NCBI GenBank assembly: GCA_037379345.1
Contig: CM074511.1
Span: forward strand, 27,100,862-27,164,861
Reading direction: 5' to 3'
Origin: Perna viridis
Taxonomy: Eukaryota
DNA: 64,000 nt
The notes below the pieces were generated by a model that saw only the letters and a list, made by a program, of their open reading frames with translations, had not been told where the DNA came from and searched no databases. The position numbers and the translations under genes were made by a program. Below are positions 433-63,875 of the stretch, in pieces; positions within the stretch are counted from its first letter, which is position 1; each line of letters starts with the position of its first letter.

Positions 433-1561
433 CTAAAATACGTTCAACTCACAAATCATATTTTTAAACTGTTTTCTGTAGGTCCATATTGACTTTCCTC
501 CATCAGCAATGACGACCAACTCCTTGGTTTGTGTGTCTAAAGTGACGCCCATCGATTTGAATACGGATATAAAGATGTTACCTTCATTGTCTGTGTCAAA
601 ACCACACTCGCCAATAACATTAATAGATTGCAACTTGTTTGAACAATTGAACTCGATTATGCTAGAGTCATTTCTAATGAGAACAAGTTCCTTTCCTTTC
701 TCGTTAAATATAAATTTTCCGTTCAACTCCCTGTTAATCGTTACTATTTTCCCGTTTAGCATTACAGTGTTTAGACCTTCATCTATACAGTTTACCTTGA
801 TTGCACCAAAGGAAAGTCCGACACCGTAGCAACTGCCAATCATATGAAATTGGTTAATAATTACAAGATTTTTATAGTTTGTTTGCATAAATTTTTAGTA
901 CGAATCGTCCGGATGTAACATAAATCAAATTATTAATATTGTCGACGGCTATTGCTTGTGGATCACTTTTAAGTACTAATTCACACTACCTTGCTCCTGT
1001 CTTTTCATAAACCATCAAGCGAGGTTTTGACTGTTCACCAAATATAATTTGTCCCATGGGAAGAATATTCAGTCATCGTATGAAAACGTTACTGTTTGTT
1101 TTTCTACTAGTAGTATGTCCGTTTTACCAAAAGCTATCCTTGATGTACATGCTTTCCACCGCTAGCGTTAATCTCTGCTGCTTCTAGTTCTCCTGCTGCA
1201 GGCGTCATTGTATTGTTATCAAGGACAGATTGCGAAAATATCAAGTTTTCGTTTTCGACAGTTGATGAACTATTTTCTTCCGTTTTTCGTATAAGTCGTA
1301 AATGAAATTTTGTCGATGACATCGAGTTCACTCTTTTTTCATTTGAATTCTAATATCAAATGTACACTTGACAGTGCATAACGACTTTACTGTTGTTGGT
1401 AAAAAAAATTCCTCTTTTTCAATCAACGAAGTCAGCTCTTTTAATGCCAGAGAATAAATCACGGGAGCGGATTTCAATTTTTGCATAGTATTTAGAGTAT
1501 CCTGTTGTGGTTAAAGATTTTTTCTCTTAACAATGAAGCTTTTCTGCTGCTTTTCGATTTC

Positions 1562-8301: not shown

Positions 8302-9594
8302 TCATGTAGCCGTCAAACTAGCTCACCATTCAGACATAGGGCTACTTGTATGCATCGACTGGAATTACATGATAATAAAATTTCACGAATAACTAAACGC
8401 TCATTATCCTACCAATGTACCTGGTCTATTATAGAGTCGTTTGTATTATATCATTTCTTCTGATTTTTGATTGTTTGTTTGTTATAGGTTACGATTTTAT
8501 CACTGTCTTTTTCTTGATGTCGTAAAAAAATGCGATAAAACTTAATTTCAACTATTTCAGTGCCATCTAGCATGGACCACAAGGAAAAATAACACAAGTA
8601 CAATTTGTATCATAACATTTGACTTTATTTCTAATTATTTTGGGAATGATTTTTGAGATCACGTCCATAAAATGTTAAAACAAGCAAGTTTATGGTCATT
8701 TTTTATTTGCTACTTACAGCAAGACGCTGTGTGTTAGAAATAAATGTGAATCATCTACAACAAAATTAAGAATGTTTTATCATTTCAACAATATCATTTG
8801 TTTGTTCATTCAAATAGGTTGTAAAACACGTTACATGCTTCAGAAGGTTTTCTGACAAGAAGAGTAAAACCTGGATCATCCGACACCTCAGTACATTAGA
8901 ATCATGTATGATCTGAAACTTTTTTGTTGAACAGGATACTGATATTTTCTTCTTTCGATAAGGTGAATTTCCCCACAATTTTCTTGTCGGAAGATATGTC
9001 AGGTTTAAACTTTTCCACTGCATAACAATCACAGCCTCTTTTTAACCTTCCTTAAAGTTTAAAGGCAAAAAAAACAGTAGCGGTTTGTAAAAACTAAAAC
9101 TTACAAACCGACACTGATGTGTCAGTTTGACAAAAGTAATGTCGGGCCATCACATCATTATTCATTTATGTGAAAGTTTAAAAATTTGGTATTTGAACTA
9201 TAAAACGACAAAAAGCGTATTAAGTAAAATACAAAAATGAATATTTTTGATAGAAAAGGTTGTTTTCGAAATTGTAGTATACGTATAAGTATTGTAAATT
9301 CTAGTAGCATGATAGAAAACGGTATTCCGGAATTGATCGATTATGTTTACTTAATTAGTAGAATATATAAGTCTTAACATTAATCATGTTTTGAAAAAAA
9401 ACTTTACAATATTTCAATATTCAATATTTCTTTAAAATCAAAGATAACATTAAATCTTTATCCAAATAACAAAATAATAACAAAACAAAAACAGTATGGT
9501 TAAGCCGGAAAGAAAGTTCAGCCAATCACAGCCCTGGGAATTCGTGATTTCCCTGAGAGACACGTAGAATCTTCAGAGGATCGTCTCGGGGTAA

Positions 9595-9759
9595 TTACGG
9601 CATGCCAGTTTGCTGTTTTATCCAGTCCACGTAAGACGTAACTCTTGTGAAAACACTGGGATATCCAGGTTTGTCACAATCTTCCGTTCCCCACGATACG
9701 ATACCAGTCAGGTAATATCTCCCATTGTACTTGCAGGACATTGGACTTCCGGAGTCTCC
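9595..9759 (-). CDS. protease exon 8 (catalytic Ser, stop)
   Basis: [54 protein letters not shown]. Confidence 0.95.
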
Positions 9760-12700
9760 CTAAAATACGGAATAAACTAAATGGAAATTAAGGTATTTCT
9801 TAGCTTACTACAACTTCTTTTATTGATTTCGATATTTTTAAAATCCGTGTACAAGATCTAAATACAAAAGCGCATCAAATGAAATCTAAATAATTAAAAG
9901 GGTGTTATTGTTAACGATCAAAGTTAACTGTCAAATGATAAAAAAGATGCTGAATTCACTCACTGAGCAAGGTCCAAAGGTTCCATCTCCGAAACAGACC
10001 ATATCATTGTCCATGTTTGTCTTCCAGAACTCGCTACATCTCGTATTACTGATCACGTGACCCTGGACTTGCCGTAATGATGCCCCAGTAGTACTTTCCT
10101 CTGCAATAGTTAATGTAACACAATACGATATACATGTAATTTCCAAAAGCTTATACATGTTGGAGGCCATAACAAATCCATTCGGTGGCATAGATTAGTT
10201 CTATGGAAAGCCAGCGGAGTCAAATTCTTAATTCGTTTATAGTCAATTCGTTAATAATTGTAAAAGTATAATTTCAAAATTCGTAATTTGTAAAAATCAA
10301 TGTCTATTTGTAAATTGTTACCATGTAAAATCCTAATTTGTAATTCATAATACGGGTTTTATAGTAATTTTACAGTAAATTATCGTCTCCCGGATAAGGT
10401 TCACACTTGAGATGTTCTCCCATAGTTATTTCTTATTATTATACCTCAGTATATAAACATCAATACAAAATTTTCTACAATAAAATTGCTATTTTTCTCC
10501 TTTTTCAGTGTTTGACTATTGACCGGCAATGTCAACCGCTTTCGCGGATTTTTAGTTCCGTCACCGGATTGGACAAAAGTTTTATATTTATTCGGAACGC
10601 TCGAACTTCACCCTCTCTTAATGAAAACCCCGAAATTATCACGTCTACTCGTTTTGTCTGCTGAATCACAAAGGGCAAGGTTTGCCTCCTTAACTGACCA
10701 GGATTTGGACACAATTATTGGCCAAAGGACTCTAAAAACACAAAATCCGTTATACGCGTGTCGAAAAGGATTTTAAGTGACTATCTAATAGAAAAAGATG
10801 GGGAATTTACGTCAATTGATGATCTTCTGCTGAAGTTACATGTTATGCCAAACAAATCCATGATAACCCTTCGCTTTGGGTTGCAGAAACATTTTCTCAA
10901 AAGTAAAAATGAGGACATTATAAACAGTGATGCGTTTTCCGGTGCAAATGAAATGTTAAAGTCAGTTTTGGTCAAATTATCAAAGGAAGGTTACGGGACA
11001 GTTCGTCACAAGGACGTTATTATACGTGAGGACTTACAAAAACTGTACAATCACCAAAAGTTTTCTTGTAAAACACCAGAATCTCTACAGAAAAGGGTGT
11101 TGTTTTTTTTGTTACATTTAATTGTCATTCAATAATATTGTTAACTCTTTATTATTTTTATTTTACTCAATACTGCATACTGGCATGCTCTTCAACAAGT
11201 CTTGCACTTTAACACAGATGAAATTGAATGTTTGCGAGACAATATTCAAATATGTACATTGTTGCTGTTCTTTATCTTACAGACAATTGCTGTTGAAGGC
11301 TACTTTCTGAAAATTCAAACTTCTATGAATTACTGGTGAAAAGGTCAATGAGACAACGTTCAGGTTAAAATATTGCCAAAAGATGCATGGTTTTCTGGGT
11401 TTTGAACATTTTGAGGTGATGAGGGGAAATATCAGTGACATTGAAATAGAAAATATCGTAAAAACGTTTTTCTGGGTTATCATTTTGAGATGATCATTCA
11501 ACCATGAACAATGGTGGGATATGGAGTAAATATATTACAAGTCTAATGTTTTCGGTATAATAAAATACTTATAGACTGGGTATTCGGGAAATAGCAAGTT
11601 TGTTGTTCCCCTCGACTGTGACTATTGCCCGTGGAACAAACTTGCTATTTCTCTCATACCCAGTCAATTATATAATGTGCATAGGTCTCGTTTTCGAGTT
11701 GATTTCAAACAGCTCATTCTCAGGTAATGTTTTGTCATTTCAAGATTAACAATGAAATATAAACTCTCAGAATTTGTTTAAAGAAAGACAAAAAAACTGA
11801 ATTTAGTTGACTGCACAATGCATTTAATCAACAAATGTAGCTTTTGAACTTCGCAGTTTTCAAAAATGAACATTTTACATACTGGCTTTTTAGTATGAAT
11901 GTAGGATGCATCGTTAGATGTATACAATGTCATCCACGAATGACAATTACACTTACCTTTCGTGTCTCCCCATCCTGTTACCCAACACTGGTCAGAGTTC
12001 TCTACATCAAACAGTTCTACACTATTACTTTGTTCTCTCTTGAATCTAATGTGGTTTACCATATTCAATTTTGTCTTGAAAGCATCAGGCAAGTCTAGGC
12101 GGCTAATGTACTCATTCACTAATGTATCCCGCGGTACAGAGTTATCGTTCCTTTTGATATTGTTGGAGTTGAATTGAGGATCACCGCTCAAGGGAAGACA
12201 AATTGCTCTGACGTAATCAGAGGTCAGGTCGACTGGTTCTGCCAGCTCAATAAGAGCAATGTCATGCTTGTACTGTTTATGAATAGGAATACTTTCGTTT
12301 TCTTCTACGGCGTCTCTCTGATCGACCCTATAGTATGGATGCTATAAAAAATAGTTTGGACACTTTAAATGACATACATGTACATGTACATGCATTGAAA
12401 AAATACAGAAATTCGTAAAATAGTTCGGATTCAGTATTTAATATTTTAACGTGTGTTCTTTCACATTTAGATATTAAAACAAATATTGATTTCTGTTATG
12501 AAAATATTTTTATTAACAAAATGAATGTCTCAAAAAGTTTTTTTTTAAAGTTGAATGTTAGATACGTTTTGTAACATACACTTTCTTAAGTGCAAAAAAT
12601 AAATACGAAAATTGTCATTTATTACATTCGTTAATCGGTAAGATTTTTGGTGTCATTACATCCAAAAATTAAACGAATGATAGCAAAAATACATATCAGA

Positions 12701-15700
12701 ATTTATAACACCTTACTCTAATAATTCTCCTTATTGGTACATCCGTTCCAGTATCCCCCTCATACATAAAATGAAGTCCAACAGAAACCCGCCAACTAGA
12801 GGGGTCGTTGTACATACTACAATATAAATGAATACTTATCGTCATTGTGTGGCAATAATATGATGAAAGAAAGACCAGTTATTTGATTCGATGACATGTC
12901 GTATATTATTTTGCATAATAAAATTACTAATATTTAGTTTAAATCATTACACTGAATCTAGGGACAAATTCTTGGCTGCTTTAAGTTACTCATTTAAAAA
13001 AATCGTATCAAATTGTGGAGAACAAAACAAGGATCATAATTTTACTAATTCATTACCCCCTCAAGCAGTGTGCAGCAGTCACAACCCATCTGTCACTGAT
13101 GAGAGCTCCACCACATATGTAGACGCCAGTCAAAAACCGCAGCGCCACCTGCCATGGCCAAGCACCACGTGGTGCAGTAGATCCACCAATTATGCGTTTA
13201 GATCGATGTGGGAAAGCTGGTATACCACAAGTATCCCCTACAATAAGTTGTATGTTTATCATGAAATAAATTCTAACCTAGGTTATATACTATAGACAAC
13301 GAAAGGTTTTATTCCTTTGATATCGTAAAGGTTCAAGGTCTTTGATTAAAGGATTTTTCATTAAAAATATTACCAGGTTAATTTCTAATGGATTCCAGTC
13401 CTGAGTCATAAAGGTTTTCAGTTCTGGGATTATAAAAATTGTGGACTGCGGACGTTAATGACGTCACAGTACCAAAACATTTCATACAAAATAACCTCCA
13501 TCGGAAGTACTCGGCTATTTCCCCCACATTACAAATAACCTCGGATGCAAAAAGGATAATTGCTTCTTGAAAATTGAAGTGATATGCGTATCAAAGTAAG
13601 TGCTAAAGCATTTAGTTAGATATCACTATAGAAATGAAGAACAATTATAACGCTAACAAGAATTAAGCGCATTTTGAGCAGCTAAGAAAAAAATGATGGG
13701 AAAAAATCAACCAGTTTAAACACAATTTTAGAATCGAATCGGGCAAATTCCGGACAGATTCTTGCGTTTTTCTTTTATAAAGGCCGAGTAGTTCGATTGA
13801 AAATAAAATACATGCATATAACAATAGTTAATAAACAAACCTAAGAGAGGGATCATAACAGATCAAATTGAATTAGTAAAAAAAATGGGAATATTTTACT
13901 CAAATCACAGGGGCTTGCTCCTACTATCTAATATGCAACCTCACTAGTATAGGTTATATTCTATTGGGCTGCTTATTTGATAGTGGGAGCAAGCCCCTGT
14001 GCACATATCATATGAAGTAGCATCATATTTTATTGAAAACTCTGTGAAATGTACCTGGATTTATAATGGCATTAGGCAATTCCTTTTGTGTGGTGGTGGT
14101 TGGCGCCAATGTCGTTGTCGTCTGCATCGCTCTTAATCTCGCTACTTTAAAAGAAACGAGCCTTTATAAGCTTTGTTAATTTTATTATATGAAGATATTT
14201 TTATTTTTAATTTCTGTAAAAAAACTAAAAACTTTTTGTCATGGCTTTCGTGTAAGATAACAACGAATTTAAATAGTCCACGAAAAATAAACTTTCAAAA
14301 AGGAGCTTCTGTGCTCTTATACAGAAGCCCATGAACCAACGAAATTTCAACAAACCACGAAAGTTTATATACTAGTACACCGCATAACTTCAATTTCAAT
14401 ATTTTTTTTGGATTTGCAGGAGAAACTTAATAATTATTTCTTTTTCTTTAGACACAAATTGATAATAGTGAAGAAGGTGAAAAAGTTAGAAATCTGTCAA
14501 CAGCAGTCACTAGGCGATCCCATCCGGTCTCCTCTTTAGAAACCGTATGGTCAAAAATAATTTATAGCTCAAGTCTGGCCCCACACTATGACATGCAATA
14601 CTTAAATAAAACTTCTATCAAAATATCAACTGGACAAATGAATTAAAAGGCGAACGGATAGACAGACGAACTTTTTTAAAGCGTGGGTATAAATACGAAG
14701 GGAAAATCTGAAGCTCTCGCACTGCTTACCATAATCCGGTGGTGCACAGCAACTATCACTTGGAGAAGAGCACAAAGATATCCCCCATGAATGTACAAAT
14801 TTGAATTCACACTGTGGGTTGCATGTCCCTTGTAATAAGTTACAAAGTTCGTACTGGTAACCAACGGCATAACCTATAAAGATTGAAAAAAAAGAGTAAT
14901 TAAAAAAAAATAATCACAAGCTTTCGTAATCAAGATGACATGAGTGCTTCTTTTGGAAAATATCGGTGCACCTTGTCAAATGATTAGTTTCAGTAGTTAC
15001 TAGTGACAGAAATTATTGTGATGACTTTATTATTGCGAAAAATGCTACTGATATTAGATTGCATTTGATAAAATTGCATCCGTTTAAAAAATAAAATGAA
15101 GTTTTCAGAATGTGATATGACTTTAAGTGGCATTTACGACGTAGTTGACAAAATCTAAATAATTAATGCACAAAATAACTTCGGAGTTTGATGTAAATCC
15201 CGTCTGTTTTGGTGTTAAATTTTCTGTGTTTCGTCGTTTGGATTTAAGCTGCATATATCTTCTGTTTTTCTCGATTCTTCTTTTTTCCCAATTTTCGAGA
15301 CCCATTTTTTTCTGAATATTTTTTAAAAATCTTTTTATGTTCTAAATTGTAATCTATGACCAAGTATTGTAATCTGTTTATAGTTCTTCTTTGTCCATTG
15401 GTTTTTATATTAGAATATACTCTGAAATCCTTGCTTTGACAAAAAAATACCTAGCTTATCATACAGATGGTTGCAATATGCGATTGATTTTAGCATTTTA
15501 TACAGTTGTACTGAATAATCGGAATTACAAAAAAAATTGTATATCATCAATGGTAACGATGAATTAAACTCAATCAAATTGTATTCAAATATCCCGCCAA
15601 TTATTCGAAAACCTTCAAAAATGTAAAAATTCTTTGACACAATGTCAATAGGAACTTTATCATAAATAACTCGTTTGAAAATATAGTCAATTTGTTATTT

Positions 15701-18700
15701 CTGTCTTGAATGCGTTTCAGCTATTCTGTTATCAAGCCTTCCCTGATTTAGGAGAGATATCAGATGTATTTATGTCGTAATGATGACCTATTATCAATGC
15801 CATCACCACAGGCTTGCTAGGTTCTCACACAAAAATATTAAATTATCGATTCATTTCGATATAGCGATAACAATGTTTTTATTTTAGGTGTTTTTGATAT
15901 ATATAAATAGAATAGTGGAATAGTTTTCGCAGATATGTCAAAATGTACTGGTTCAATGAGATGATTAAGGCACAATCTTACTAATTTTAATAAATGAAGT
16001 TTTTATCATCTTAATGATGTAAAAATCATCGGCTATATTTCGCGGTAACTGCAAGACCTCCCAAACCATCAATGGTTACCTGTGTATATGTTAAGTTCAA
16101 CATTAATTATCTCTAGAATCACATTACTGAAAATCAGAGTGTGAAGATACAAGTAGCAAGAATAAATAGGCGAAAAAAAAACGCTACTTTTTCGCCCTGC
16201 TTTTCCACAGTTGAATACAGGTACAAGTAAATGGGCTTATGATTATATCCTTTCCCCAGAAACAGAGCCTTGACCAAGAAAAAAGAAACAAACATTTTCA
16301 TTATAGAATGAATGAGTTGCCTAGGTCCCACTAAAATTTTGAATATGGATCAGGTGCACAAGTAGGGCAAGCGTTAATTGAAGACACAAGTAGAATTGCC
16401 AAAATGAACGAATCAGATGCACAAAAAAGTATGACTGTAGTTTGATTTTTAAAAAAATCTTCCTTCAAATAAAAGTATAAACATTCTCTTGAATTCCAAG
16501 TAAATTTTAAGCATGCATACGTCAATCTAGATTTGAGATTCACAAATAACATTTTATCAGCTCAGCTGGGCAGTGCCAGGTATTACTAACTAAATATGCG
16601 AATATTAAATCTTAATCTACGATCGACTATCAATATCTTATAATTATTAATATTGATTAAAAATATAATTTGAATTATTTCGCTATTTTTCATATTTAGC
16701 TTACTTAAGACATACGTGTAAGAGTAATCAAGGGAACCAAGGTTATAGCGGTAATCAAAAGAATGTAATCCAGGGACAAAGACCAGACATGGAAAATAGA
16801 CATACACAACAAAGAACTTAATGCAACTAAAATCATAGATACAAAATAACAAAAGCAAATGAGCAACTCGGACTCCTCTAAAAACTGGGAGCATGAACCA
16901 GGTGCACCGGTAAGGTAAGCGTTCTCCATGCACTCCATTTTATCATCGCTGTACCCAAAGCGATTGCAAGGGATTAGATAACGACATTAATGACCAACCC
17001 ATGGTTAAACGATGATAAAATTGAGATTCCGTGATTTATTGAGATTCTACAGGACTCTATAGTTTCTTCTTTTTTAATAGACGCAGCCCATGTGTTGCTC
17101 GACATATTAGAATTTGTATTTTTCTAAGGATGCAAACTTCAAGGTTTAATATCGTGTAACTTTATTGCACTAGTAAATTCTAAAACTATACTTGTATGCT
17201 TCTAAGTATAAATTCATTGCTTTCATGGCTCTCCTTGGGTACTAATTACTGGTGTGAATAATATGTCAAGTATCTATTTTTACTCATACGTTATTTGTTT
17301 AAGCTAATTAGTATAGTATCAAAATTACTATCCCAATACTGATATTGTGAATGAAATTCCTTGCTGAAGTAATATAAGACAGGAATGCATCTTATCAATA
17401 CTCCTACAAAGATCTGAATCTCAGAATAAAACAATTCATTATCTAGTTCATTCATAGATTGACCCAATCAGAGTGATTGGCTAATGAGGGAAGAAAATAA
17501 TTTCCGGTACCAATACGATACCTAGGCTATTTCAAGTATTATATGGTTAAAGGAAAAGGTATACATGCTGGTATGTAAATATTAAAGAAACATGAACGTC
17601 ATACAATGAAGATAGAGAAGGACACTTCAGACAAAAATAAACCACTTTTTCTCTTTATATAGTTTCATAACGATAATAAATTGATAAAATTAACGTATGC
17701 AAGCTTGCATTAGAAGGAAGGTCGAAACAAGGTGATTGTGGCCTAACGCAAACATAATAAATGTTACTGAAAATAGTAAATACGCAACCTGTGAGGGCCA
17801 ATTTTTTTTAATAAGTAATCGTTTGTTTTTCATTGTAAAACATGCAATGTCGTTTCTCGTAAGATAAAAAAGACATTTAGGAAAACTTAATTGCAAACAA
17901 ATTATTTGCAAAACAGCTTTACATAATATTTCATTGCATTTTGAAAAATAAAAAATATTACCAGTCCACATTAAATTCAGACAATGTCTATAGAACAGGG
18001 GGATTAATGTTGTAGAAAATCCCATCAAACAAACCTTTTAATTTCATATACAATCTAATCAACTGAATCTCAAAAGGGGCAAAAACCGAATAACATACTA
18101 AGACGGGTTTGAGACGTGCATGAATCACCTCTCATCTGATATTTATACACATTTCTATGTAAATGTACTCGAGCCAAACAGTCTTTCTTTCTCAACAATT
18201 TTCTGAGCCGTTGAATATACCATGTAAAATTGCATTTTTTACAATTATGCATTATTAAATCATATCATGATAGATATAACGAAACGCAACCTAGTTATAT
18301 CATATAATTATTTTGATATTTTCATTCATTCATGTTTGTCGTGGGTGGATATTATTTCATTAAATATTTTCCATAATAGTTATTTCATTCATGAATTCCC
18401 AGACAAACCTTGGGAGTAAACTTTGCATGAAACACTGAAGAGATAACGTTATATTTTGTAAATGGTTTGTGTTGAAATTTTCTTTCTGTCAAACACTCCT
18501 TTTTACTTATTCAATTAATGATTTGTATGAAAGGAATTTCCATATCGACAGAAAGTCTTTTTAGTACCCCTGAGAAATTATGCTTGTTACAAATTTAAAA
18601 CGAGTTCGTTATTTTCTTTTTGCTAAATATTTTCTCTTAAATATTGGTTTCGTATGTACTAGACCAATTTCCACAACAATATGAGGTTTATTTTTTAGTA

Positions 18701-21700: not shown

Positions 21701-24700
21701 TTTCGTAAAGAAACAAAAATCATTGGAATCCAATCAACTGGCTAAATGGTCACGAAATGGCCGTCTAAAACAATTTCGATACTGCCATTCAACTCAGAAT
21801 ATCATATTTGTCTGATGAATACCTTTCATTATTATGATCAGTTTGTGTAGGATATCCTAAAAACAATTATTCCAACTTTCACTAAATTTTTCGCATGGTT
21901 TTAGAGAAGAAGACTTTCAAAGCGAACAAAGACAAAAAATCTGTTTCAGGGGCCATAACACCTATATCGGGCGACGAATCAATTTGATAATTTCGGCATA
22001 GGGCCGTCTTCTGATGCTGACCAATATTACCTTCAATCAGAATTTTGCTGAATTCAACGGTTTTTGAGGTATTGGTAAAATGCCAACATGGGTCAACAGA
22101 TATTCACCATAGTTTGACACAGATAGATCTCATCATGATAAACAATTTTACTCCATGTCATAATTTGGTTAAACCTAACTGTTTTGGGGATAAATGAAAA
22201 AAAGTGCTGTCTGACGCCTATCTTCAACTACAGTAACAGCGGCCATATTTTTTTCACGGATCAAATATCTAAACGGTCATTTAGTGCAGAATACCCTCTA
22301 AAACAGCCATGCTAAGTTTTATCCAAATCCATTCAGTAGTTTCAGAAAAAAATTGATAAAAAAATTGTTAACGTCGACAACGACGACAGACGCCAAGTGA
22401 CGGCAATAGCTCACATGGCCTACGGAAAGCTGAGCATAAAAGCTAACCAATAACAGTTTATGGTAACTAAAAATAAAGGAATGAATTAAGTAGTGTAAAC
22501 ATTAGAGATATTTTGTAGTTTATTCAGAGCTTGATTACGATGGGTTCCATAATATAACGGAATAAAAAAGAAAATACAAAATGACCGATTATATAACATG
22601 TAATCGTTGTTCTGGTGTTATTCAGTGTAAACAGTTTGTCTTTCCATATTACAATGACCATTACCTTATGAACTGACTAAGGTACTTAGGAAGTTCAGAA
22701 GGAGCTTAAAACTTTCTATCAGACATAATATAAAATAATTTTATAATATACTTTTTGCCCCTGGCGAAGAACCTAAGGCCGAGAATTTGTACACATATCC
22801 TTTACATTTTTACATTTTATTTATATTTTAATTGTATGTAGTTACTTTTTAACTTTTAAACGTGGCTGTTATGGCACCTACATATGGAGTTTTCATATTA
22901 CTGCTCATACGTTTTGCCAGAGCTTGCCGGAACAACGCAGACTTTTTTGTATCGCGCTAGACGTCTTACAATAAGGCTTCTGGAACAGGGTTATCTTTCT
23001 ACAAGATTGATGTCATCACTACAGAAGATCGTCACCATGAATTAGTGGATCTTTACGGTGTAACCATCTGCACCATGAAAACTAATTTGTTCAAAGTGTC
23101 AGAAGTTTCCTTTCTTCTTTCGTCTACCCCGGACTTGACAATTGATGAGCAACTCGGCAAGTACTTCTAGAAAAGCAGAGGACGCTTAACCTACCAGTGC
23201 ACCTGGTCCATGCTCCCAGTTTTTAGTGGAGTCCGAGTTGCTCATTTACTTTTGTTAATTTATATGTGTTATTTCAGTTGCTTTATGTTCTTTGTTGTGT
23301 TTGTTGAATGTCTGGTCTTTGTCCCCAGATTACATGCTGTTGGTTTCCGCTAGAATCTTGGTTCCTTTGATTACTCTTTCACTTTTCATCATTTTTATTC
23401 ACGTTTAATTTGGGCTACTTCACAACATATATTAATACATACATATGTATATATATGTGATAAATGTGAATTTTTTAGGTGAGTAACCGGTCCTTATATT
23501 GCAATTTGACTCCAAGTATCAATATGCATTTGCTTTATTATACTTTTTTAAAATGTAGTTTCTTCTTATCATTCCCTTGGAGGAAAAGAGGAAACATACC
23601 ATATTTCATAAAATTTGACAGTGAGGCAGTCCATATAATTTCTTACAGGTCGTTATATGGGCCAATAGATATAGCGGAAAATGTATGCTTATATAATTGT
23701 GCTCTAAAATCCTAAATTATTCAAATATTGTACGCATTATATCATTGAGTTTCCCTGACAAACGACGTAACGACCTAGTGATTAACAAAGACATTTTTTA
23801 TTTTGTCAGGAAATTGCACTTCAATACCTAATCCTCGAGACCTAATCACGAATCATTCATATCAAATGAATTCATGTCGTAGTTATTTTTAAATTCTAAA
23901 CAAAGACTAAATGGTCCTTATTGTATCGAAAACGAAGTTCCTAAAATTTCGATGCACTTTATAATCACTCATCATTTTTGTAGGGGGGAAATTTCGACGC
24001 TTTACTTGTAATTTCTGCAACAACGTTGGTTTTGAACTGATGAAATACTTCTTAAGCATTAACAATTGTTTTGAGTCTTGCTTATGGCATAAGCTTTGCA
24101 TTGATTGCAATTATGTACAAATTATATAACCTCTTGTGTAAAGCAAATGACTAGTTCCCATCTAAATTATTTTATAAATTGGAATTTACAGAATGAACAC
24201 ATTAAACTGGTTAGCATATTTTAAGGTTTTTGTTAAAGAAAAAGGAAATCCTTTTAAAAATATGTTAAAGAGTTTGGATTATGTATTTTGTATGGAATAT
24301 GTAAAGGATAAATTACAATAAAAAGACATATGATGAATTGTAGTAATCAATTAAGTACTAAAATTTGTCTAAATAAAATAGCGACATTGTTACCAATGAG
24401 TCCATTTCATTTGTATCTTGGACGAGTGTTGGCAAAATTTAAGTTTAGAAACTAAAGGTACTTAGATGTGGACATATGAATAAATGTCTATTTCTTTGTT
24501 TCCTCAATGCTAAACAGATATATTATTAAATGTATTATTAAACTGGAGTCATGAACGGATTTTTTCTTGGTGTAAAGAGTGAAAAACTCGTGTCAATTCC
24601 ATAATTAGAATTTATTGCTTGTAAAGTTAGTTTCTTTTTTATTTCTAACGAAATTTTGGTAGAAGATCGTATACAAATTGTGAATAATAATGCCACATTC

Positions 24701-25779
24701 TGTTTATCATTTGGGCATTAAGTATCAGTCCCTGTAAGAATCAGGCAATAGGTGAAACATGGTATTAAAAAAAACCATCATTTTAATAGTGTAATTTGAA
24801 AATTTGCACCATCCGAAAAAAGTAAATATTTTCCATATCATGTTCGACCATTGATTTACAATTTCATTAAAATGCACTGACAATGGACATTTCAAGGACA
24901 GATAACTGTCGAAAACCTCATTTTTCTCATATTTTATCGGAAAATTCCTGAGCAAATGTAATGATGCAAAGATCAAATATTGGTCTTTTCAAATAGCACC
25001 CTAGAGTGACATTTTATTGTCAGATCGGTGGTGTTTTGACATGCATTTTTCTGCTTTTTCCTGATTCTTACAAACACGTTAATATCATCATATCAATTTA
25101 CAAGATATTTTAATGGAAAACTCTGACTCCTTGTCTTTGCAGTACATTACCTGCGAATACTAAAAAAAAACTGTCTTCGACAGCAGAAATAAATATACAA
25201 CATTTGATTACGGTGAAAAACTCACTACTTCGGTTGACAAAAATCAGAGAAATTATAATTTTTAAAAACAGTTAAACGTACATATATATGTGTTTGATCG
25301 AACATATACCATGTTAATACCTAAATAATGCTTCTGTCTAAAGAGTGACAACAGAGAGTACATGTATATACTGATAATCTGCATCGATCAAATAAGTGAT
25401 TATATATTCGTTCGATAATATTTGTAGTATCTAATTTGCTTGTACAATTAATTAATTAATGAAAGACACACCAACTTCTACATACAATTAATTATTCCCT
25501 GGCCACATAACTAGTCATATATTTGATACTGCCGTAGAGATGTCTGTTAAATGCATGAATCTTTTCTTTTCTTTTCTACGGTTTAATCAAATATTTAACC
25601 TAATTTTGTTTTTATAACGAATCAAAACGTACAACAGGTATACAAAATGTTATATGATATAAAAATATGGCTTTGAATGTAAATAAATAAGACAACTTAC
25701 CTGTAGCTTGTTCAAATGTTAGTATCATTGATGCAACCAAAATAATAACTATGTTCTCGCAGATCTGTAGAGTGTTCAT
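9595..25779 (-). CDS. Secreted chymotrypsin-like S1A serine protease with N-terminal beta-defensin-like module; 8 exons, 426 aa
   Basis: Exons 25779-25701, 14873-14730, 14144-14055, 13237-13057, 12816-12717, 12341-11957, 10100-9964, 9759-9595. All introns GT-AG, phases match, 1281 nt open. Motifs IIGG, TAAHC, DIAL, GDSGSP, SWG; the five canonical disulfide pairs are present. Confidence 0.9.
9964..10100 (-). CDS. protease exon 7
   Basis: [45 protein letters not shown]; ttgcag|...|gtgagt. Confidence 0.93.
10655..11110 (+). mobile_element. Crypton-like tyrosine-recombinase (DUF3504/KCTD1-ZMYM-related) ORF remnant inside the protease intron between exons 6 and 7
   Basis: [14 protein letters not shown] / frameshift ~10725 / [21 protein letters not shown]...LRFGLQKHF...[14 protein letters not shown]...KEGYG...HKDVI...DLQKLY...TPESLQKRV; breaks off before the expected catalytic RG.E motif. 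Confidence 0.7.
11574..11665. repeat. palindrome, 31-bp arms (3 mismatches), probable end structure of the Crypton-like element
   Basis: GACTGGGTATTCGGGAAATAGCAAGTTTGTT ... AACAAACTTGCTATTTCTCTCATACCCAGTC. Confidence 0.8.
11957..12341 (-). CDS. protease exon 6 (catalytic Asp; two large insertions)
   Basis: HPYY...[26 protein letters not shown]-(68 aa)[10 protein letters not shown]; tatag|...|gtaagt. Confidence 0.93.
12717..12816 (-). CDS. protease exon 5
   Basis: [33 protein letters not shown]; phase 2/0 fits both neighbours. Confidence 0.9.
13057..13237 (-). CDS. protease exon 4 (activation site, catalytic His)
   Basis: [14 protein letters not shown]|[16 protein letters not shown]...[18 protein letters not shown]. 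Confidence 0.95.
13906..14001. repeat. 96-bp foldback hairpin (mini-MITE-like)
   Basis: CACAGGGGCTTGCTCCTACTATC...GATAGTGGGAGCAAGCCCCTGTG, ~35-bp arms. Confidence 0.85.
14055..14144 (-). CDS. protease exon 3 (Thr-rich linker)
   Basis: [29 protein letters not shown]; 90 nt, phase 1-1. Confidence 0.8.
14730..14873 (-). CDS. protease exon 2 (six-Cys beta-defensin-like module)
   Basis: [47 protein letters not shown]; tttatag|...|gtaagc; 144 nt, phase 1-1. Confidence 0.82.
16720..16926 (-). mobile_element. Penelope-like 3' fragment
   Basis: Matches family 3' end. Confidence 0.8.
20879..21389 (+). mobile_element. TSD-bounded SINE-like retroposon (RTE-like head, Meta-like core, (CAAA)n tail)
   Basis: Perfect 12-bp TSD CGCTGTAAAATG at 20867-20878 and 21390-21401; GCTTGTCGTAAAAGGCGACTAA in the head; GCACTTTAAAGAACCC core; second copy at 1-357. 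Confidence 0.85.
21624..22440 (+). mobile_element. Helentron/HINE-like non-autonomous element
   Basis: (GAC)-type microsatellite followed by the 3' hairpin GCTCACATGGCC...GCTGAGC; repeated AAATGGCCG motifs; 5' boundary approximate. Confidence 0.5.
22873..23378 (+). mobile_element. Penelope-like 3' fragment with decayed RT C-terminus (subfamily B)
   Basis: [15 protein letters not shown] homology plus family 3' end. Confidence 0.8.
24722..25078. mobile_element. ~350-bp TTAA-flanked MITE (GTGTCAGTCCCTGTAAGAATC family)
   Basis: Ends TTAA-GTATCAGTCCCTGTAAGAATC ... GATTCTTACAAACACG-TTAA; 4 copies. Confidence 0.75.
25701..25779 (-). CDS. protease exon 1 (signal peptide)
   Basis: AAAAATG context; [27 protein letters not shown]|gtaagt, phase 1 matches exon 2; joined across a 10.8-kb intron by inference. 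Confidence 0.7.
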
Positions 25780-43000: not shown

Positions 43001-44947
43001 GAGAACATGAATAAGATTTTAGTAAGTACACCAAGGGAAAGATTTTGAATCACAAAATTTATGGAAAAGTTTACTATACTGTATTTATAAAGACTCTTCG
43101 CCGATTTATTTTTTTTATTGCTCTGGTTTTTAAATCAATATGAACATATTTCGAAGCTACCTTTTAAAACAACCCGTTAGCGTAATCCAGTGCCTTTCTA
43201 TCACTTATCTTATCAAAAAACGTTACAATGTAAACTGTGATTGTCCAAAAAAAGGTACTAACACATGTAGGTCTTACATTTTCCCGTTTTAAATTTAATT
43301 GAAACTGTTCCAGAAAATATGAATAAATATAACAGGCAAACGCATAGAAATTCTTTAAAAACAAATACAGATAACACATGCGTAGGAAAAATACCTTTGG
43401 AAGACACGGAACCGAAATAAGTATGCCGGATAAAAACTTTCTACACCGTGACCCATTCGTACTGAAAGTGTTGTGAGGTTTGTGCTGTGTTCTTTATAAA
43501 CAAGAGACGGAAGAAAACTAACTTTCCACTTTCAATATATTTTAACTTTGACTATTTGACAAGCTTTAATTTCTCCATACTCTGATACTTTTAAGAGTTA
43601 ACGAAGTCGTCTATAATAGATCATACACAATGCACCCACATTGTCAAATTCGCGTATTTTCATTCGGAGCATGATTTTTGTTTGTTTAAATTTGCCTGAT
43701 GCTTACAGATGCTACATATTTAGCACTTAACTCAAAGTGCATTTAAATGTGGTTTTATAGACTTCCGAGTCTTCTGGATGAGGCAGGTTTTTTTTGTTTA
43801 TTAACGGTCAGTTTAAACCGGGCTCGTTATATTTGTAAAAACTTTGACGTACCGGCCGCGACACTCTTAGAACAGAAAGGCAGTATTCGCCCTTTGATTT
43901 TCTGAAAATATTGCAATAATGCACGATGTCAATATCGATTTAAAAACGATTACGATGAAAACAACTGAAACCAAATACGTTGTAACCACATAGTGAGGAC
44001 AAAGATACCAGCAGTTCATTAGCATTAATGTAAAAAATGACCAGAAAATGAAAAAAAAATATTTTCACAGTTTGGACGCAGCTACCATAATTATTATTAT
44101 ACAGTCACTTAAAACGAAATTGCAATATACTTATCATTCTATTTTCATTTCCTTGGTGCGTTCACTCAAAACGAATAATATTTTGAGAAATTTCAATACC
44201 GTTCCCATAAAGTTAATATCAATAATAAGAGAATCTATTATGTATGCAATATATGTGTGATATATATATTTTCTGCCTGCTTTACCCTATTGTGTGATAA
44301 TTCAAAACTAAATGAAGTGAAAGTTTGTTCTTTCATGACCATTCCTAGTGCATTATATAAAGAAGAAGTAACTATGAGTGGTGATTGAATTCCCATTTTA
44401 CCCTTTCTTACGGATAAATAATCAAAGGATTTGGATTTTTAGCACTTACACAGTGAATCATGGGGCGGCTATGAAACTTCGGGTTATTTTTATTTTAGGT
44501 TAAAATATAACATTTCTTTTCAATTTTGAAGGTAAAATATTGAACAATACTTTACTATAATCAATGTAATACGAATCCGTGATTATCAAAATGTGTATTT
44601 TTCCGATTTAACAATTTATTCAGAGGCCCCTAAGGGTGGGGGAGTTTAAATTTTTGACTTTTAAATCAATTCTTACCTATTTATTAATACAAAATTATAG
44701 TCAATTATTTCTTATCTTGAAACCCTATCAGTTCTGTTATAATATTGACATTTAAGACCTATATGAACATCCTTCAGCGCTGACAGACACTTATTGAACC
44801 CCAACTTTCCTTAATTAAACAACACATTTCTTTAAATTTTTGTTACAATTTAAACTCAAGTGCTAGTTACTTAGATTGACATAGACAGTTGAAACCAAAC
44901 ATTTAAAATTAAACAAAATGAGCTGAAAAGTTTAAATCAGTCGTAAA

Positions 44948-45379
44948 ATGACTACTGGAATGCCGGATAATTTTACGGTTGCTGTGGCAGCTTCGAAATT
45001 TAGAAGACTGTCGAGCACAAGTGTAAGGGATTCACACTGGCGCACCTCTTTAATATCAAAAACTTTTAATTGTAATAGAAAAAGTGCCGGGGATGCTACG
45101 GATATCGTACGAAATTCTAAACAAGTTGTTCTGGAAAATGAAGGTGTCGTTGGATTTAAACGGTTTCGAGCTGCGGTTCAGGCAACAATGTTACTTTCTA
45201 ACCGGCGTATTTCAGATCCTTCGGTTCCATCCGGTCACTCCATGGCCGATGTTTTGAAGAGAAGAGGGACTATCCAGGCAGTCAATATGCTCCAAGGGAA
45301 ACGGAGGAGTGGTGGGGACTTCGTTGTCAAAGATCAACGTTTGGTAAATGCAATTCACCGAGCTGCGGACGAAAGGAAG
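44948..45379 (+). CDS. CNBD2-like exon 1
   Basis: 144 codons, in-frame upstream stop, AAG|gtaaga donor. Confidence 0.8.
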
Positions 45380-48300
45380 GTAAGACTTTCCTATACAGAT
45401 TATTGGTTTAGTAATTTACATTCTCCCAAGCCAGGGTTGTGAGTCAACTCAAAGATGGGGGTATTTGAAGAGTTTTTATTTTACTCTTTGGTTTATTTCA
45501 CATCATGAATAAAAATAACTGAAGTCCCTTGATGTGGCGATTTGTTAGAAGTTTTTTTTTTTTTTTTTTTTTTGAATTTGTGGATCCAAAATTGCTAGAC
45601 ATTTCTGTTAAAATTGAATGAATTTCTACAATGAATACAAGCAGAAAAATTCAAAGCATATTCAAATTAAAGTGTATCTAAGTTTTTATCAGTGTAATAC
45701 TCAAAGGGAATGTGGATAAAATTGATTCATTTGATTGGTTAATTAAGGTTGACTTAATTGTCTCACTTTTCCTCCATTTTAGTACTAACATTTTCAAACA
45801 TATCAAGTTTTGTTAAGGAGGAAGACCTAGGGTAAGGGAAACAACTCTTAAAAATCACTGGAACGTTTGTATTCAACATTTTACATCAATCTTATGTAAG
45901 CATCTAATTAACTTGGATTCATTTTATTCTGCTTCAAATGAAAGCTTTTGAGGCTTAGGTGAAATTGTGTATGATGCAAACATATCATTGATTTTATGAG
46001 ATGTCTACATCCTTAAGCAAAATCAAAACATTATTGTGTCTTAATTTTGAAAAATTGTCATCGTTCTATTACCGTGGTTTTTTTATTACTTTTGTGTCGG
46101 GGCCCTTCAGAGCAAACATAAAGATGCGTTTACATTTGTTAAAGACCTTTTGGTCATCTCTGAAAGTATTTAAGTGTAAGTGTTTGTAAGAATCGGAAAA
46201 AATCGGAAAAAATCAGAAACATGCATGTCAAAAACCCTCCGACCTGACAATGTAATATCACTCAAGGATACTTTCTCTATTTGAAAAGACCATTATTTGA
46301 TGTCTCCATCACTGGCTTTGCGCAGAAACTGTTCAATAGAATTTTAGTAAAAATGAGGTTCATTTTCAGTGCATTTCAATGAAGTTGTAACTCAAATGAT
46401 ATGGAAAATCTTGTCTGTTTCCCTTGATTCTGATGCAAATAGTCAAATTACACTATCAAAATGATGTTTTTTTTTTTCAAACCATGTATCACCTACTGCC
46501 TGATTCTTACAGGGACTGACACTTAATATTTTGTGATAAGGTAATTCGCATTCGCTGATGTATTTGTTGCGTTTCGTCATATCCGTAAACCCGGTGATTT
46601 TTTTCTGAAACAAGCACATCGCATTATCCTTTTTATAATGTGTCTTATATATGCCACGTGTAGGCGCTTAGGTGAGTACTATCTAGTTATTACTACGAAT
46701 ATTCAATTTGACTAACAATAGGATATCAGCTTAAATAGAATGAACAATTACAATACAATACAACAAGTAAAAGTATGCCGATATAACAAATACCCGTCTA
46801 ATATCGGTGAAGTATGCCGATATAACAAATACCCGTCTAATATCGGTGAAGTATGCCGATATAACAAATACCCGTCTAATATCGGTGCTGGTACTGTTCT
46901 GACCAGTCGTATAATGGAAATCCGTATTGAGACTATTTACTTTGATAAAACGAACTAGGCAAAGTTGGAAATTGGACTGGTAGCCAATAAAGGTATATAA
47001 GCATAAATTAGTATATTCTTTATACTGACCGAGTAACTGGTCCCTGGTTCGCAAAGATACTACAGTTGTAAAGTCCCTTTGTAATGCTTCTGTCGGATGT
47101 TGAACCCTGGGCCCTCTGAACATCTTTTGTATCAAAAAATAAATCTCTTTTATCTGTCACTAATGTGTAAATAAGCATGGTCTAAAAAATAATAATTTTT
47201 AATAATTTGAAGAAATATTATTTTGGTTAGGTAAATGTGTTCTAGATTTTTTACAAATCACGCACGTATATAGGTTGCTGCTTTTTAAAGTTTATTTTAC
47301 ACCAGCTGAAAATGTGGTTTGAATAAACAAACATTACCGATCATCCACAAGACCGGTACACGACCATTTTAATTTTTTGAAGGGATTTAAGTAATTAACT
47401 TGTCAACGGTCAACACATTACAAGCAAGTGCTTTTACAGTTAACAAAATGATAAATCCAAATGAAAATATTTATTGAATTCTGTGTTTTGTCGTTGCCAA
47501 ATGTAAAAATCACAGTTACGCGGATTAAATTTAAATCTAGGCTAATTGTTAACTACTTATCTCAAGCAATAGCCTGTCAGAACAGACCTTTGAAAACAGA
47601 CTATAACCGTTGGCGGGTCCAGTGGGTTCCATAAGCTGGATTTCTCCTTTATATGTAAAACAAATTCTATTCATATTATTCGAGCAATATTGATAAAAAA
47701 TTAGCATGGATCCCCCTCTTTTAATAAATTTTTGGATTCGTCCCGGATAGCCCCAGAGGAACGAGTTTTTCATTGTATTTTTTCCTGGTAATTCAAATGT
47801 AACTGAAAAAGTGGTCAGTGTGGCACCAAAACTAAGCTGTGCATATATCTACAGAAACCTAGCGTGTCGTACGCTTGCACCTCATCATTACATGTGTATA
47901 CAAACATTGCCTTGGTGTTGAATCCTTCCCCTTGAGTGCGGATTTAGTGTCTTCCTTCCCCGAACGGAATTCGAATTAGAAGTGATTGTTTAACTCCGCA
48001 AAGCATACATGAGATAGCTGATTTCTACGCTTTGGTGACATAATTGTCAAGATTGGTGACATGACTTGCTCTGGGGTATTTGTATTGTCAGCTAGCACAA
48101 ACCCGGGTGTTGGTGTTCGTTTTAATGGTCAGCTCGTTCTCTTTTTTTAAATACATACATACCCAAAATGGACATTAACCTAAAATCAATCAATCAATTA
48201 ATCAGATATCAAGTCCCTTCGATCTTTGTTGTATTTCGTTGACTGTTTGTATTAAGTATCACTCCAGCTAAGGATCATGCAAAATGTGATTCATGGGTAA

Positions 48301-57300: not shown

Positions 57301-60300
57301 AGTAACGAAAATAATACATACATGGTAACAAAAGCAAATGAGCAACTTAGACTTCAATAAAAACTGGGAGCATGTAACACATGCGTCAAACAAGCACATT
57401 TACACGGTTATCGTTGAATGTCCTTTGGTTGATTTAAGTTTGATTTTAGTATTCATGCTTTTTAATAATTCAGAGCAAATGTTGAGATTTTACTGCTATT
57501 TTAACCTTCGTATCCATCAGAGAAAGCAATGTTGTCAATAGTTTTTTTTACTTATAAAATGATTATTATCATAATGATATTTAATTCTAAGACACTATGC
57601 CCCATATGAACCCATATCTACTCATCTGATTTAAAGTTACTCTCCCTGTTTAAACGGAAGGCATTAATTTTATCAAATAAAAGTTTTCTGTTTAACAGGA
57701 ATGTAATATACCTCAAAGGTTGGCCACTGAAAGTTCTTACAGGGAACAGAAAAGCAATTATGACAAGCTATTACCAGTAAGTTAAACTTTATTGTTTCGT
57801 TTATTTTCTTTCGATTACTAACATTTCCGTATCTGGACCAATTTCTTCCGCAGGCTTAATAACCACTTCTTTTACTTATTGACTGATTTTAAGTCCACAA
57901 AAGAGTAAGATCTGTTATCTTTGCTCTTAACTCACAGAGCAGTATTCGTTAATTCATAGCAGTGCACTATAAAAGTATGGTTCTGTTAAACTTATAAACC
58001 AAGATTTTCCCTCAAAACCTCCCTCAGTTCAAACTTAGATATATCAGACAATTTAAAAAAAAAGGAATTTAAAGAAATATCCAATTTAGAAATATTTTAT
58101 GACTGACATCCAGACTTTAGCTAGCTAATAATCAAGCGGAGCGAGACGTAGAAAATTAGGAAATGGTTACTTGTTACTGATTGGTTGGTTCTCTTTGAGT
58201 AAATCAGATTATGTTGTATAATCTGGCTTGGTACTATGAAGTCAGTAACATTGACTGATCCGCACTCCACGATTCAAATAATCCCCACACAAAATGACGT
58301 TTTGAATACGAATCAATTATTTAAAATATTTGGAGTGTCATTCATTACAAATTAAATTATAAGAAATGTAATATATATTTTAACACCATATAGACAAAAA
58401 TTGATATAAGGTTATAGATTTGTGGGTATATTTGTATCGAATCAAAAAGTATATTGATATTAGATTTAGCTTTGGAGAGTTATTTTATGAGGCTTTTACA
58501 AGAAATGTCATACCGGGTAGTCGCTATATTGTGGCAATAGCTAACAATACTACATGGATAAAACCCTCCGTACCATAATATTTGTAATTTACAGTATATC
58601 TTTTTTTTTTGTGTGTTTGTTTGTTTGTTTGTTTGTTTTTTGTTTCAAATTCCCTTTGTTTTATTGTTTACTTCTTATTTTGAAGTGTTTTGCACAAAGT
58701 CAATATGGGAATATACTGCAAACTTACATTAGGCTGCTTGTTTAGTAAATATCAATGATTCGTCCGTAATTGTGGTACTTATAGATTTTGCTATCATTTT
58801 TTTTACAGAAGAAAGTCAATTCTAACCAGGGATAGTAATTTGTCAGAGTGGATTTATATTGTTAAATCAGTAAGTTTTTAGTGCAATTAAAGAAAACCGT
58901 CATTGCAATCATCACTGGAAATTATTCAATGCGAAAGTAGAAAGTTAGGGAGCTTTAAAATTATAACCAAAATTCTTTACATTCACATTATTATACATTG
59001 TAATTGATTTCAAGGAACTCTGATTTCAAAAGCTGCATATTATAGAACATAACTAGCTTGTTGAATGAATTTAAAAACAGAGAGGTCATCAATATTCAGA
59101 ATAATTTAAAGTTGTTCATTTGATTCCAATTTACATACTGTACTTTGATAAGCTATATGTATTTTGTTTCTTGAATCTGTCTCGGATATATCGCCATTTT
59201 GCCATACATATTTTAGTATATCACTGATATATCGCCATTTTGCCATACGCCTTTGAGTATACCACTGATATATCGCCATTTTGCCATACGCCTTTGAGTA
59301 TACCACTGATATATCGTTTTAAGGTTTATTAATTCTATGAGTCTTGTTTTTCATAAGGGTTCAATACGTGTTATGAAGAAATTGGTAAAGACAAAAGCAA
59401 ATACAAGCAAACGGAATGGTCTATACAAGAAACTTGCTAATTGTGATGGCTATAAAGCTTTCCAATCTGCCGAGGAGGAATACCAGAGATTTATACTTTA
59501 CAATAATATCGAAACACCTCCACCTTTGACAAGATATGGTGACGATGAAAGCATCATAAGTTTAAACAGAGAAGAATCATCTCTTACTTTACCTCTGATG
59601 CTGAAGTTGCAACGTGCTTGTCGTCCTAGGACTGCTTTTACTGACGTCACTGATGTGTCATCGAATAGGTCATGGCGTCGAATGTCTATGTCATGGTCCA
59701 GCGGTTATGAGCGAACTAATAGAAAACAGGTAAAAATACCCTAATGATTTGGACTTTTTTATTTTCAACGAAATCATTTGTTCCTAATGTGTTAATAGAA
59801 GTCCAAGCTTTTACTTTGTGTATCGATAAACAATAATTCTGTTAATAAACGATTTCAACAGTTTGTCACTAAAAGAAGACCGTAAAAATTCCCTAATGTT
59901 TGGCAAAGGTACATCATGTAATTAATATTTACACATTATATGTTAGCAACTGATATCAACAATCTACTTAAGGAATATAACTAATATCTGAATATATCAT
60001 CTTGTATAAAGAACTTTGGTTCGACTTACACAGTATAAACCACTTCGCAGTGTATGTAATGGGTAAATCGAACCCAGTTCTTTATACAAGATAATATTTT
60101 CAGATATTAGTTGCATCATTATGATTTAATATTATGGCAAAAACTATGACAAAGTCATATTAATAAATTCCAATATAAACGCCTTTTTTCAGACAGGATT
60201 AATTCATTGGTAAAAGTAACCCAGTTCAAAAGGGGCGTGGTTTAAAGTTTAAAGCGGTCTTATTGATCAAGTAATAGGAAAAATGTGTATCTAAGATAAA

Positions 60301-63230: not shown

Positions 63231-63315
63231 TCTAGGCAATAGACAAAAGGAATAGTCTAAAAGGAAAGTCAATAGAATAAGTGGCATTATCAGGGTAAAA
63301 AGACGGAAAGTTGGA

Positions 63316-63875
63316 AAGAGTAATCAAGTGAACCAAGGTTATAGCGGTAATCAAAAGAATGTAATCCAGGGACAAAGACCAGACATGGAAAACAGACATA
63401 CACAACAAAGAACATAAAGTAACTAAAATCATACATACAAAGTAACAAAAGCAAATGAGCAACTCGGACTCCACTAAAAACTGGGAACATGAACCAGGTG
63501 CACCGGTAGGGTAAGCGTCCTCTGCTTTTCTAGAAACACCCGCCGAGTTGCTTATAAAAAGTCGAGTCCGCGGTAGACAAACGAGGAGAGGAAAACTATG
63601 ACCCGTTGAATAAATCAGTTTTCATGGTGCTGATGGATACACCATAACGATCCACGAGTTCATGATGGCGACCATAAAACTTTTGCAGTGATGACTTCAA
63701 TCTTGTAACAACATAACCCTGTTCCAGAAGCTTATTTGTTAGAGTTAAAAAGTCTGCGTAGTTTCGGCAAGCTTTGGCATAACGTATGAGTTGTGATATG
63801 AACACTCCATACGCAGGATCCGAAGGGATGTTGCCACAGATGAAAGGAAAGTTGACAATTCTGAATGAAAAGTCA
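63316..63875 (-). mobile_element. Penelope-like (Naiad-type) fragment with RT C-terminus and stop
   Basis: DFSFRIVNFPFICGNIPSDPAYGVFISQLIRYAKAC...KFYGRHHELVDRYGVSISTMKTDLFNGS*; no endonuclease follows RT. Confidence 0.82.

Follow-up and report, generated by a model that had tools for sequence, protein, structure and literature searches.

S1 proteases are normally activated by one cut before Ile16, and their two barrels stay a single chain or are linked by disulfides; the canonical chymotrypsin bridges are 1-122, 42-58, 136-201, 168-182 and 191-220. In trypsin, the nick at Arg122 falls within the inter-barrel segment, and the basic insert of human PRSS35 lies outside the 122-136 loop, between His57 and Asp102. 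Proinsulin contains a spacer with basic ends, the C-peptide, which is removed by a convertase and a carboxypeptidase. For human cationic trypsin(ogen), PMC5487703 describes the Arg122 nick as regulatory and places it within the catalytic domain. Furin cleaves the secreted S1-type protein PRSS35 internally and more than once, the sites including a 'PC cleavage site enriched region', which yields separate fragments (PMC10024721 and PMC10468140); PRSS35 is without the Ile16-Asp194 switch, and Thr mostly stands in place of its catalytic Ser (PMC13194640). In complement factor I, an RRKR linker outside the protease domain is removed by a convertase and a carboxypeptidase, and the same source gives the furin consensus as R-x-[KR]-R (PMC9296861). 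The dibasic pro-sites of bivalve big defensins are presumed targets of a furin-like enzyme (PMC7203481). We regard PRSS35 and the trypsin Arg122 nick as the nearest precedents for the locus described here.

The window analysed, a 64,000-nucleotide stretch of the AT-rich, 723 Mb genome of Perna viridis, carries on its minus strand a gene whose sequence marks the product as a molluscan protease of family S1A, its triad intact and its proteolytic activity predicted. It shares with S1A (PF00089) the triad motifs, activation at Ile16, the nine-cysteine pattern and the fold, and differs in a 70-residue Cys122-Cys136 loop, a furin-type activation site and an extended 90s loop. With PRSS35 it has internal sites of convertase type in common, whereas the mussel enzyme appears catalytically intact. 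The trypsin Arg122 cut is a single autolytic nick with neither insert nor released peptide; the mussel sites, in contrast, are of the convertase type and the pocket does not look trypsin-like. A spacer bounded by basic residues recalls the C-peptide and factor I, and that of the mussel protein is conserved in length and variable in sequence. The C-peptide and factor I chains stay disulfide-linked, whereas the mussel cut would fall inside the catalytic domain and, with canonical pairing, be bridged by no disulfide.

The gene model has eight exons, the first of them a candidate, all on the minus strand. The candidate first coding exon (25701..25779) would encode the signal peptide from an ATG at 25779 and has a phase-1 GTAAGT donor; it was found by a weak tblastn match to the N-terminus of the Mytilus californianus protein (E 15). 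Joined to the other exons, it gives an open frame of 426 residues with a hydrophobic core, and the homologues have hydrophobic N-termini as well. A six-cysteine domain exon follows at 14730..14873 (tblastn; RNA joint 14144-14730), then a Thr-rich linker exon at 14055..14144, supported by tblastn and by RNA joints at both ends. The exon at 13057..13237 (RNA, tblastn and translation) holds Cys1, the activation site RSKR-IIGG (13182-13205) and His57 (13068-13070), and an N-terminal barrel exon lies at 12717..12816 (RNA joints, tblastn). Exon D (11957..12341) encodes the extended 90s loop, Asp102 (12261-12263), Cys122 (12198-12200), the insert and Cys136 (11985-11987). Its successor, at 9964..10100 (RNA joints), ends in the S1 pocket residues Gly189-Pro190-Cys191, and the last exon, at 9595..9759 (RNA joints, translation), contains Asp194-Ser195 (9751-9756), Gly216, Ser226 and the stop codon. 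Searches of the species' own genome gave at least one match each for exon D and the six-cysteine exon, and no second locus was listed.

The RNA evidence over 9300-17300 came from three contig sets and from one run of raw reads (X21). We took the contig sets X18, X1 and X7 to be RNA, and their mRNA origin is indicated by the fact that their joints are spliced. CT..AC joints were found at 9758/9963, 10100/11957, 12341/12717, 12816/13057, 13236/14054 and 14144/14730. A single spliced contig (X18, record 9) consists of 9539-9758, 9963-10100 and 11957-12313 and includes the whole insert; record 4 of X1 joins 10100 to 11957-12217, record 15 of X7 covers 11957-12341, and the 10100-11957 joint is crossed by two raw X21 reads. 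No joint fell inside 11957-12341 among those listed, a set that leaves out eight weaker ones. The retention-versus-splicing check proposed in the first-pass annotation for 11988-12191 thus turned out in favor of retention, the segment being kept unbroken in spliced contigs of three studies: the 68-residue insert is exonic and not an intron. An intron or assembly artefact is thereby ruled out as the main form and we give this reading practically no chance, despite an intermediate GC content of the segment (0.39, as compared to 0.45 in the remaining exon and 0.24-0.33 in the flanking introns) and eight in-frame GT..AG pairs at least 40 bases apart inside exon D, since the segment is also encoded by orthologues in three further orders, some of them annotated proteins at NCBI. 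The contigs, which drop rare variants, leave room for a minor isoform from which the segment is spliced.

Other features of the window were recorded in passing. The intron after exon D contains, at 10698-11132 on the plus strand, an open stretch of 145 codons with polymorphic contig coverage and no Pfam match, which resembles a decayed fragment of a tyrosine-recombinase transposon. A repeat at 16716-16930 was very abundant in RNA-type runs, with thousands of reads having loose ends; similar sequence occurs near 23150-23400 and 63235-63621, and the repeat is likely a SINE-like element. Open stretches of 144-168 codons and again no Pfam match, at 44936-45439 (+), 59310-59741 (+) and 436-894 (-), may be exons of neighbouring genes.

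Searches of 90% clusters together with a profile search yielded 24 homologues, an incomplete sample because multi-domain proteases crowded the profile search (two further Haliotis sequences, P0214 and P0216, were left out). The family comprises mussels, scallops, Tegillarca, oysters, Sinanodonta, Haliotis, Pomacea, Bradybaena and further records, with a layout of six-cysteine domain, Thr-rich linker, activation site and S1 domain. The Tegillarca record P0005 is without the segment holding Cys1 and the activation site, probably a gap in the gene model. The closest named protein, from Mytilus californianus, is 65% identical over exon D and 83% over the core. No description of the family was found in the literature by accession, motif or topic, among titles and abstract starts with few subscription journals covered, and this combination of a six-cysteine domain with a furin-activated protease seems to be undescribed beyond automatic names.

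All 14 family sequences checked contain Pfam Trypsin (PF00089). In the window protein, the triad His57/Asp102/Ser195 is present in the motifs TAAHC, DIAL and GDSG, as are Ile16 (IIGG) and Asp194 (GDSG); the exon model has cysteines at residues 108 and 246, and a Cys1-Cys122 bond to the pro-chain may be expected from the sequence. An AlphaFold model of the homologue P0002, built on a 25-row alignment, showed a normal two-barrel S1 fold, matching tryptase, plasmin and kallikrein at E of about 1e-24 with a target TM of 0.83-0.90 in the top rows; the two PDB alignments looked at, both to plasma kallikrein, are interrupted near the insert. Furin-type R-x-[KR]-R activation sites were present in 21 of the 21 homologues with the region intact, three family records lacking it being left out of this count, versus 0 of 212 other S1 domains. 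With an activation site of this type throughout the family, the protein very likely meets a furin-type convertase. The species' own genome gave 23 P-domain matches, the best of which to furin had an E of 3e-26.

The pocket residues Gly189/Gly216/Ser226, found in 23 of the 24 homologues, point to a specificity that is not trypsin-like, which makes autolysis after Arg at the basic sites unlikely; this origin of the cuts was rejected on the same residues. Each of the 21 complete catalytic domains contains nine cysteines, all of them outside the loop. No canonical cysteine pair spans the loop, so that a cut there would leave the barrels joined non-covalently, and a disulfide bridging the cut is not expected. 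The 90s loop before Asp102 (12264-12341, -) holds another insert, some 15 residues long: the distance from His57 to Asp102 in family members is 56-68, a single regex misfire excepted, compared with a background median of 49. This insert carries an N-glycosylation sequon with an Asn that never varies in the family alignment, and it is reminiscent of a kallikrein loop.

The six-cysteine exon was 83-88% identical to homologues in tblastn. Its domain, with the spacing C-x6-C-x3-C-x12-C-x6-CC (beta-defensin/clip-like) and a conserved core H-x-W-x-[ILV]-x-[LF]-C, had no match in Pfam, including CLIP/CLIP_1 and defensin. Beta-defensins occupied at least 13 of 19 Foldseek rows obtained with a model of the domain, at a weak best E of 0.68, and were also its fold neighbours, with Z up to 3.3, below the confidence level of the tool; clip domains were its Atlas feature neighbours at 0.80-0.83, likewise below confidence level. 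Arthropod clip-domain proteases are built alike, with six cysteines in an N-terminal domain that ends in CC, then a linker and the S1 domain, whereas the mussel protease has furin-type activation and no Pfam CLIP match. The domain is possibly part of a molluscan counterpart of the clip-domain proteases.

The insert itself (11988..12191, -) lies in the Cys122-Cys136 inter-barrel loop and translates without a stop into 68 residues bounded by ICLP and CWVTGWG, just as the first-pass annotation had described it. KR occupies insert positions 13-14 and RFKR positions 49-52. Site 1 (12150..12155) is the dibasic KR, identified by loop comparison and a P4 check, and site 2 (12036..12047) is RFKR. Between them lies a spacer of 36 residues and 4,247 Da (12042..12149), which we predict to be released, and behind site 2 a conserved 16-residue tail leads to Cys136 (11988..12035), a putative new N-terminus of the Ser-barrel chain. 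This tail is 93-100% identical among mussel-type sequences. The background was a set of 195 Cys122-Cys136 loops taken from 97 other S1 proteins and located by regex with a length limit of 150 residues; their median length was 13 and their maximum 23, LP included, compared with 70 here; without LP the median equals the roughly 11 residues that had been quoted for chymotrypsin. R-x-[KR]-R occurred in none of these 195 loops. When the loop of the window was shuffled, the furin motif arose in 2.8% and the two-site layout in 0.035% of shuffles, with a layout window defined post hoc, after the data had been seen. The two sites, both put forward as convertase sites, are of unequal quality: site 2 fits the furin consensus R-x-[KR]-R, while site 1 (NNIKR) has no Arg at P4, nor has any of the 11 sequences checked there, all being plain dibasic. 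Site 1 would therefore need another convertase or be poorly cut.

Conservation was assessed in a clade made up of the window protein and nine homologues from mussels, scallops, ark shell and oysters, with a support of 89/90, below the starred level of the tool. At loop position 15-20, all 10 representatives have a dibasic pair, KR in nine and KK in Tegillarca; the oyster KR has Pro at P2'. Site 2 is kept as R-x-[KR]-R in 8 of the 10, rows that amount to only three independent lineages (mussels, scallops and Tegillarca), 33-40 residues after site 1 and always with Asp, Glu or Gln at P1'. Shuffling of the individual loops gave the furin motif in 1-15% and the two-site layout in 0.01-0.4% of cases, the rows being related and the layout window post hoc. 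The spacer between the sites is 33-40 residues long; its identity is 32-49% among mussel types and 71% between two scallops and falls to 13-29% between orders, where the core has 56-60%. The net charge of the spacer ranges from -9 to +4, it contains no cysteine, and mussels, scallops and Tegillarca have in common a short E-(G)-Y/F motif. The conservation of KR and RFKR in orthologues, which the first-pass annotation had wanted to see, thus held for the basic sites across three bivalve orders, the segment between them having diverged.

Within Mytilus, P2 of site 2 swaps between Arg and Lys with the consensus preserved, and five Mytilus species have a third furin site 13 residues beyond site 2 (P0001, P0198-P0202), which would free an extra peptide of 11 residues. 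The oysters (P0004, P0006) keep both loop flanks and one KR, and the middle segment is absent, so that by comparison of the sequences their gene looks much like the product of an excision written into the gene. In the P0002 model, residues 271-299 and 301-321, both sites included, have pLDDT below 50, and order returns in the conserved tail that leads to Cys136 (block pLDDT 71-85). This would predict that sites 1 and 2 are exposed in a flexible loop, a shallow alignment being another possible cause of low pLDDT. A complex prediction of the spacer with the P0002 barrel halves scored 0.02, with the alignment unused and the controls unfolded, and is evidence neither way.

We think it likely that site 2 is cut. 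Full excision of the spacer, with both sites cut, is also slightly favored in our estimate, with less assurance than a single nick because of the missing P4 Arg at site 1, the KK of Tegillarca and the Pro at P2' in oysters. In the explanation we prefer, to which we nevertheless give just short of an even chance, the insert would be a disposable, convertase-cut spacer resembling a C-peptide, and the enzyme would stay active after its loss. The zymogen would enter the secretory pathway, where a furin-like enzyme would cleave RSKR-IIGG and also, during that passage, the exposed RFKR; KR would be left to a dibasic-specific convertase, a carboxypeptidase would trim the basic residues and the spacer would be dropped. 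The product would consist of a pro-chain (about 10 kDa) disulfide-linked to the His/Asp barrel (about 16 kDa) and, non-covalently attached, a Ser-barrel chain (about 14 kDa), masses that assume signal cleavage after residue 26. Such a three-chain form would resemble the oyster orthologue, whose gene is already without the spacer; we infer its activity from the oyster sequences and from the behaviour of nicked proteases. An excisable segment of C-peptide type, as the first-pass annotation had suggested, is a fair reading, the segment being retained in RNA and its sites conserved; the purposes proposed there for it are weaker.

Loops outside the clade bear on how much weight the insert as such can carry. 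In 15 family members outside it they measure 15-80 residues, and 14 of the 15 have no furin motif, the exception being P0015 with RRRR. All four loops of 67-80 residues (Bradybaena P0024 and three other records) are without one, a pattern not visible to the first-pass annotation, which had the one sequence before it. The loop position apparently expands freely and tolerates large inserts without sites, and together with the barely conserved sequence of the spacer and with oysters that manage without it, this is consistent with an expansion hot-spot whose insert stays attached or is cut to no consequence, the motifs being inherited leftovers. We consider this fairly unlikely, since sites and spacing persist over three orders despite the turnover of the residues between them, the R/K exchange in Mytilus keeps the consensus and Mytilus even has a third complete furin site; moreover, an exposed R-x-K-R on a furin-activated protein would be expected to be cut. 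For a second activation or inhibition step, proposed in the first-pass annotation, we found no direct support. In a fuller version of such a step, furin would release Ile16 early in the secretory pathway, and the spacer would maintain latency or hide an exosite until a later, granule-specific convertase completed its excision. The two site types, furin consensus and plain dibasic, could be cut in order; the furin activation site found throughout the family implies an intracellularly activated enzyme that may need a brake, and the spacer is conserved in length. Its sequence and charge, however, are not conserved, it is unstructured in the monomer model, and oysters as well as most other members share the activation site without having such a spacer, so that we judge a latency function quite unlikely. 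A wider formulation, possible but doubtful to us, holds that the intact protease of mussels, scallops and ark shell matures in a prohormone-like manner: furin would free Ile16, and ordered excision of the C-peptide would be a second switch, acting on activity, exosite exposure or lifetime, with the barrels covalently uncoupled.

Lifetime could also be limited by the cut itself, which would leave the His/Asp and Ser barrels without a disulfide and thereby expose the enzyme to separation or degradation. The loop is indeed spanned by no expected cysteine pair of the canonical pattern, and human trypsinogen, once nicked at Arg122 and Leu81, undergoes degradation (PMC5487703). A site 2 cut along with the activation site would, however, destroy the enzyme at birth; one site would suffice for such a timer, yet two spaced sites were retained, and the strong conservation and modelled order of the tail after site 2 fit a stable new chain end. 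An off-switch of this kind is very unlikely in our view. Least probable among the proposed functions is that of a released peptide with signalling or antimicrobial activity, secreted alongside the protease, to which we grant only a slim chance. Convertase sites on both flanks are what a prohormone product would have, identities within mussel types and between the two scallops reach appreciable values, and the E-(G)-Y/F motif recurs. Against this stand the low identity between orders, the wide range of charge, the lack of cysteine and the absence of the spacer in oysters, which made the first-pass suggestion of a bioactive peptide doubtful. An RFamide precursor in particular was rejected: none of the 9 sequences with site 2 has the amidation Gly at P3, before the basic pair, and the terminal RF can therefore not become RFamide. 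Four scallop motifs were absent from the text tables of six supplementary files of a study of scallop ganglion neuropeptides, which may hold annotated neuropeptides only (PMC5996578), and the one supplementary file of PMC8398477 likewise had none of the four motifs looked for there.

The disposable spacer thus remains the preferred explanation, and the family supplies natural controls for it: two-site members (most mussel types, scallops and the ark shell), three-site members (Mytilus), members without a spacer (oysters) and long loops free of sites (a land snail and other records). If true, it would mean a new maturation route in a much-studied enzyme family and a natural split protease.
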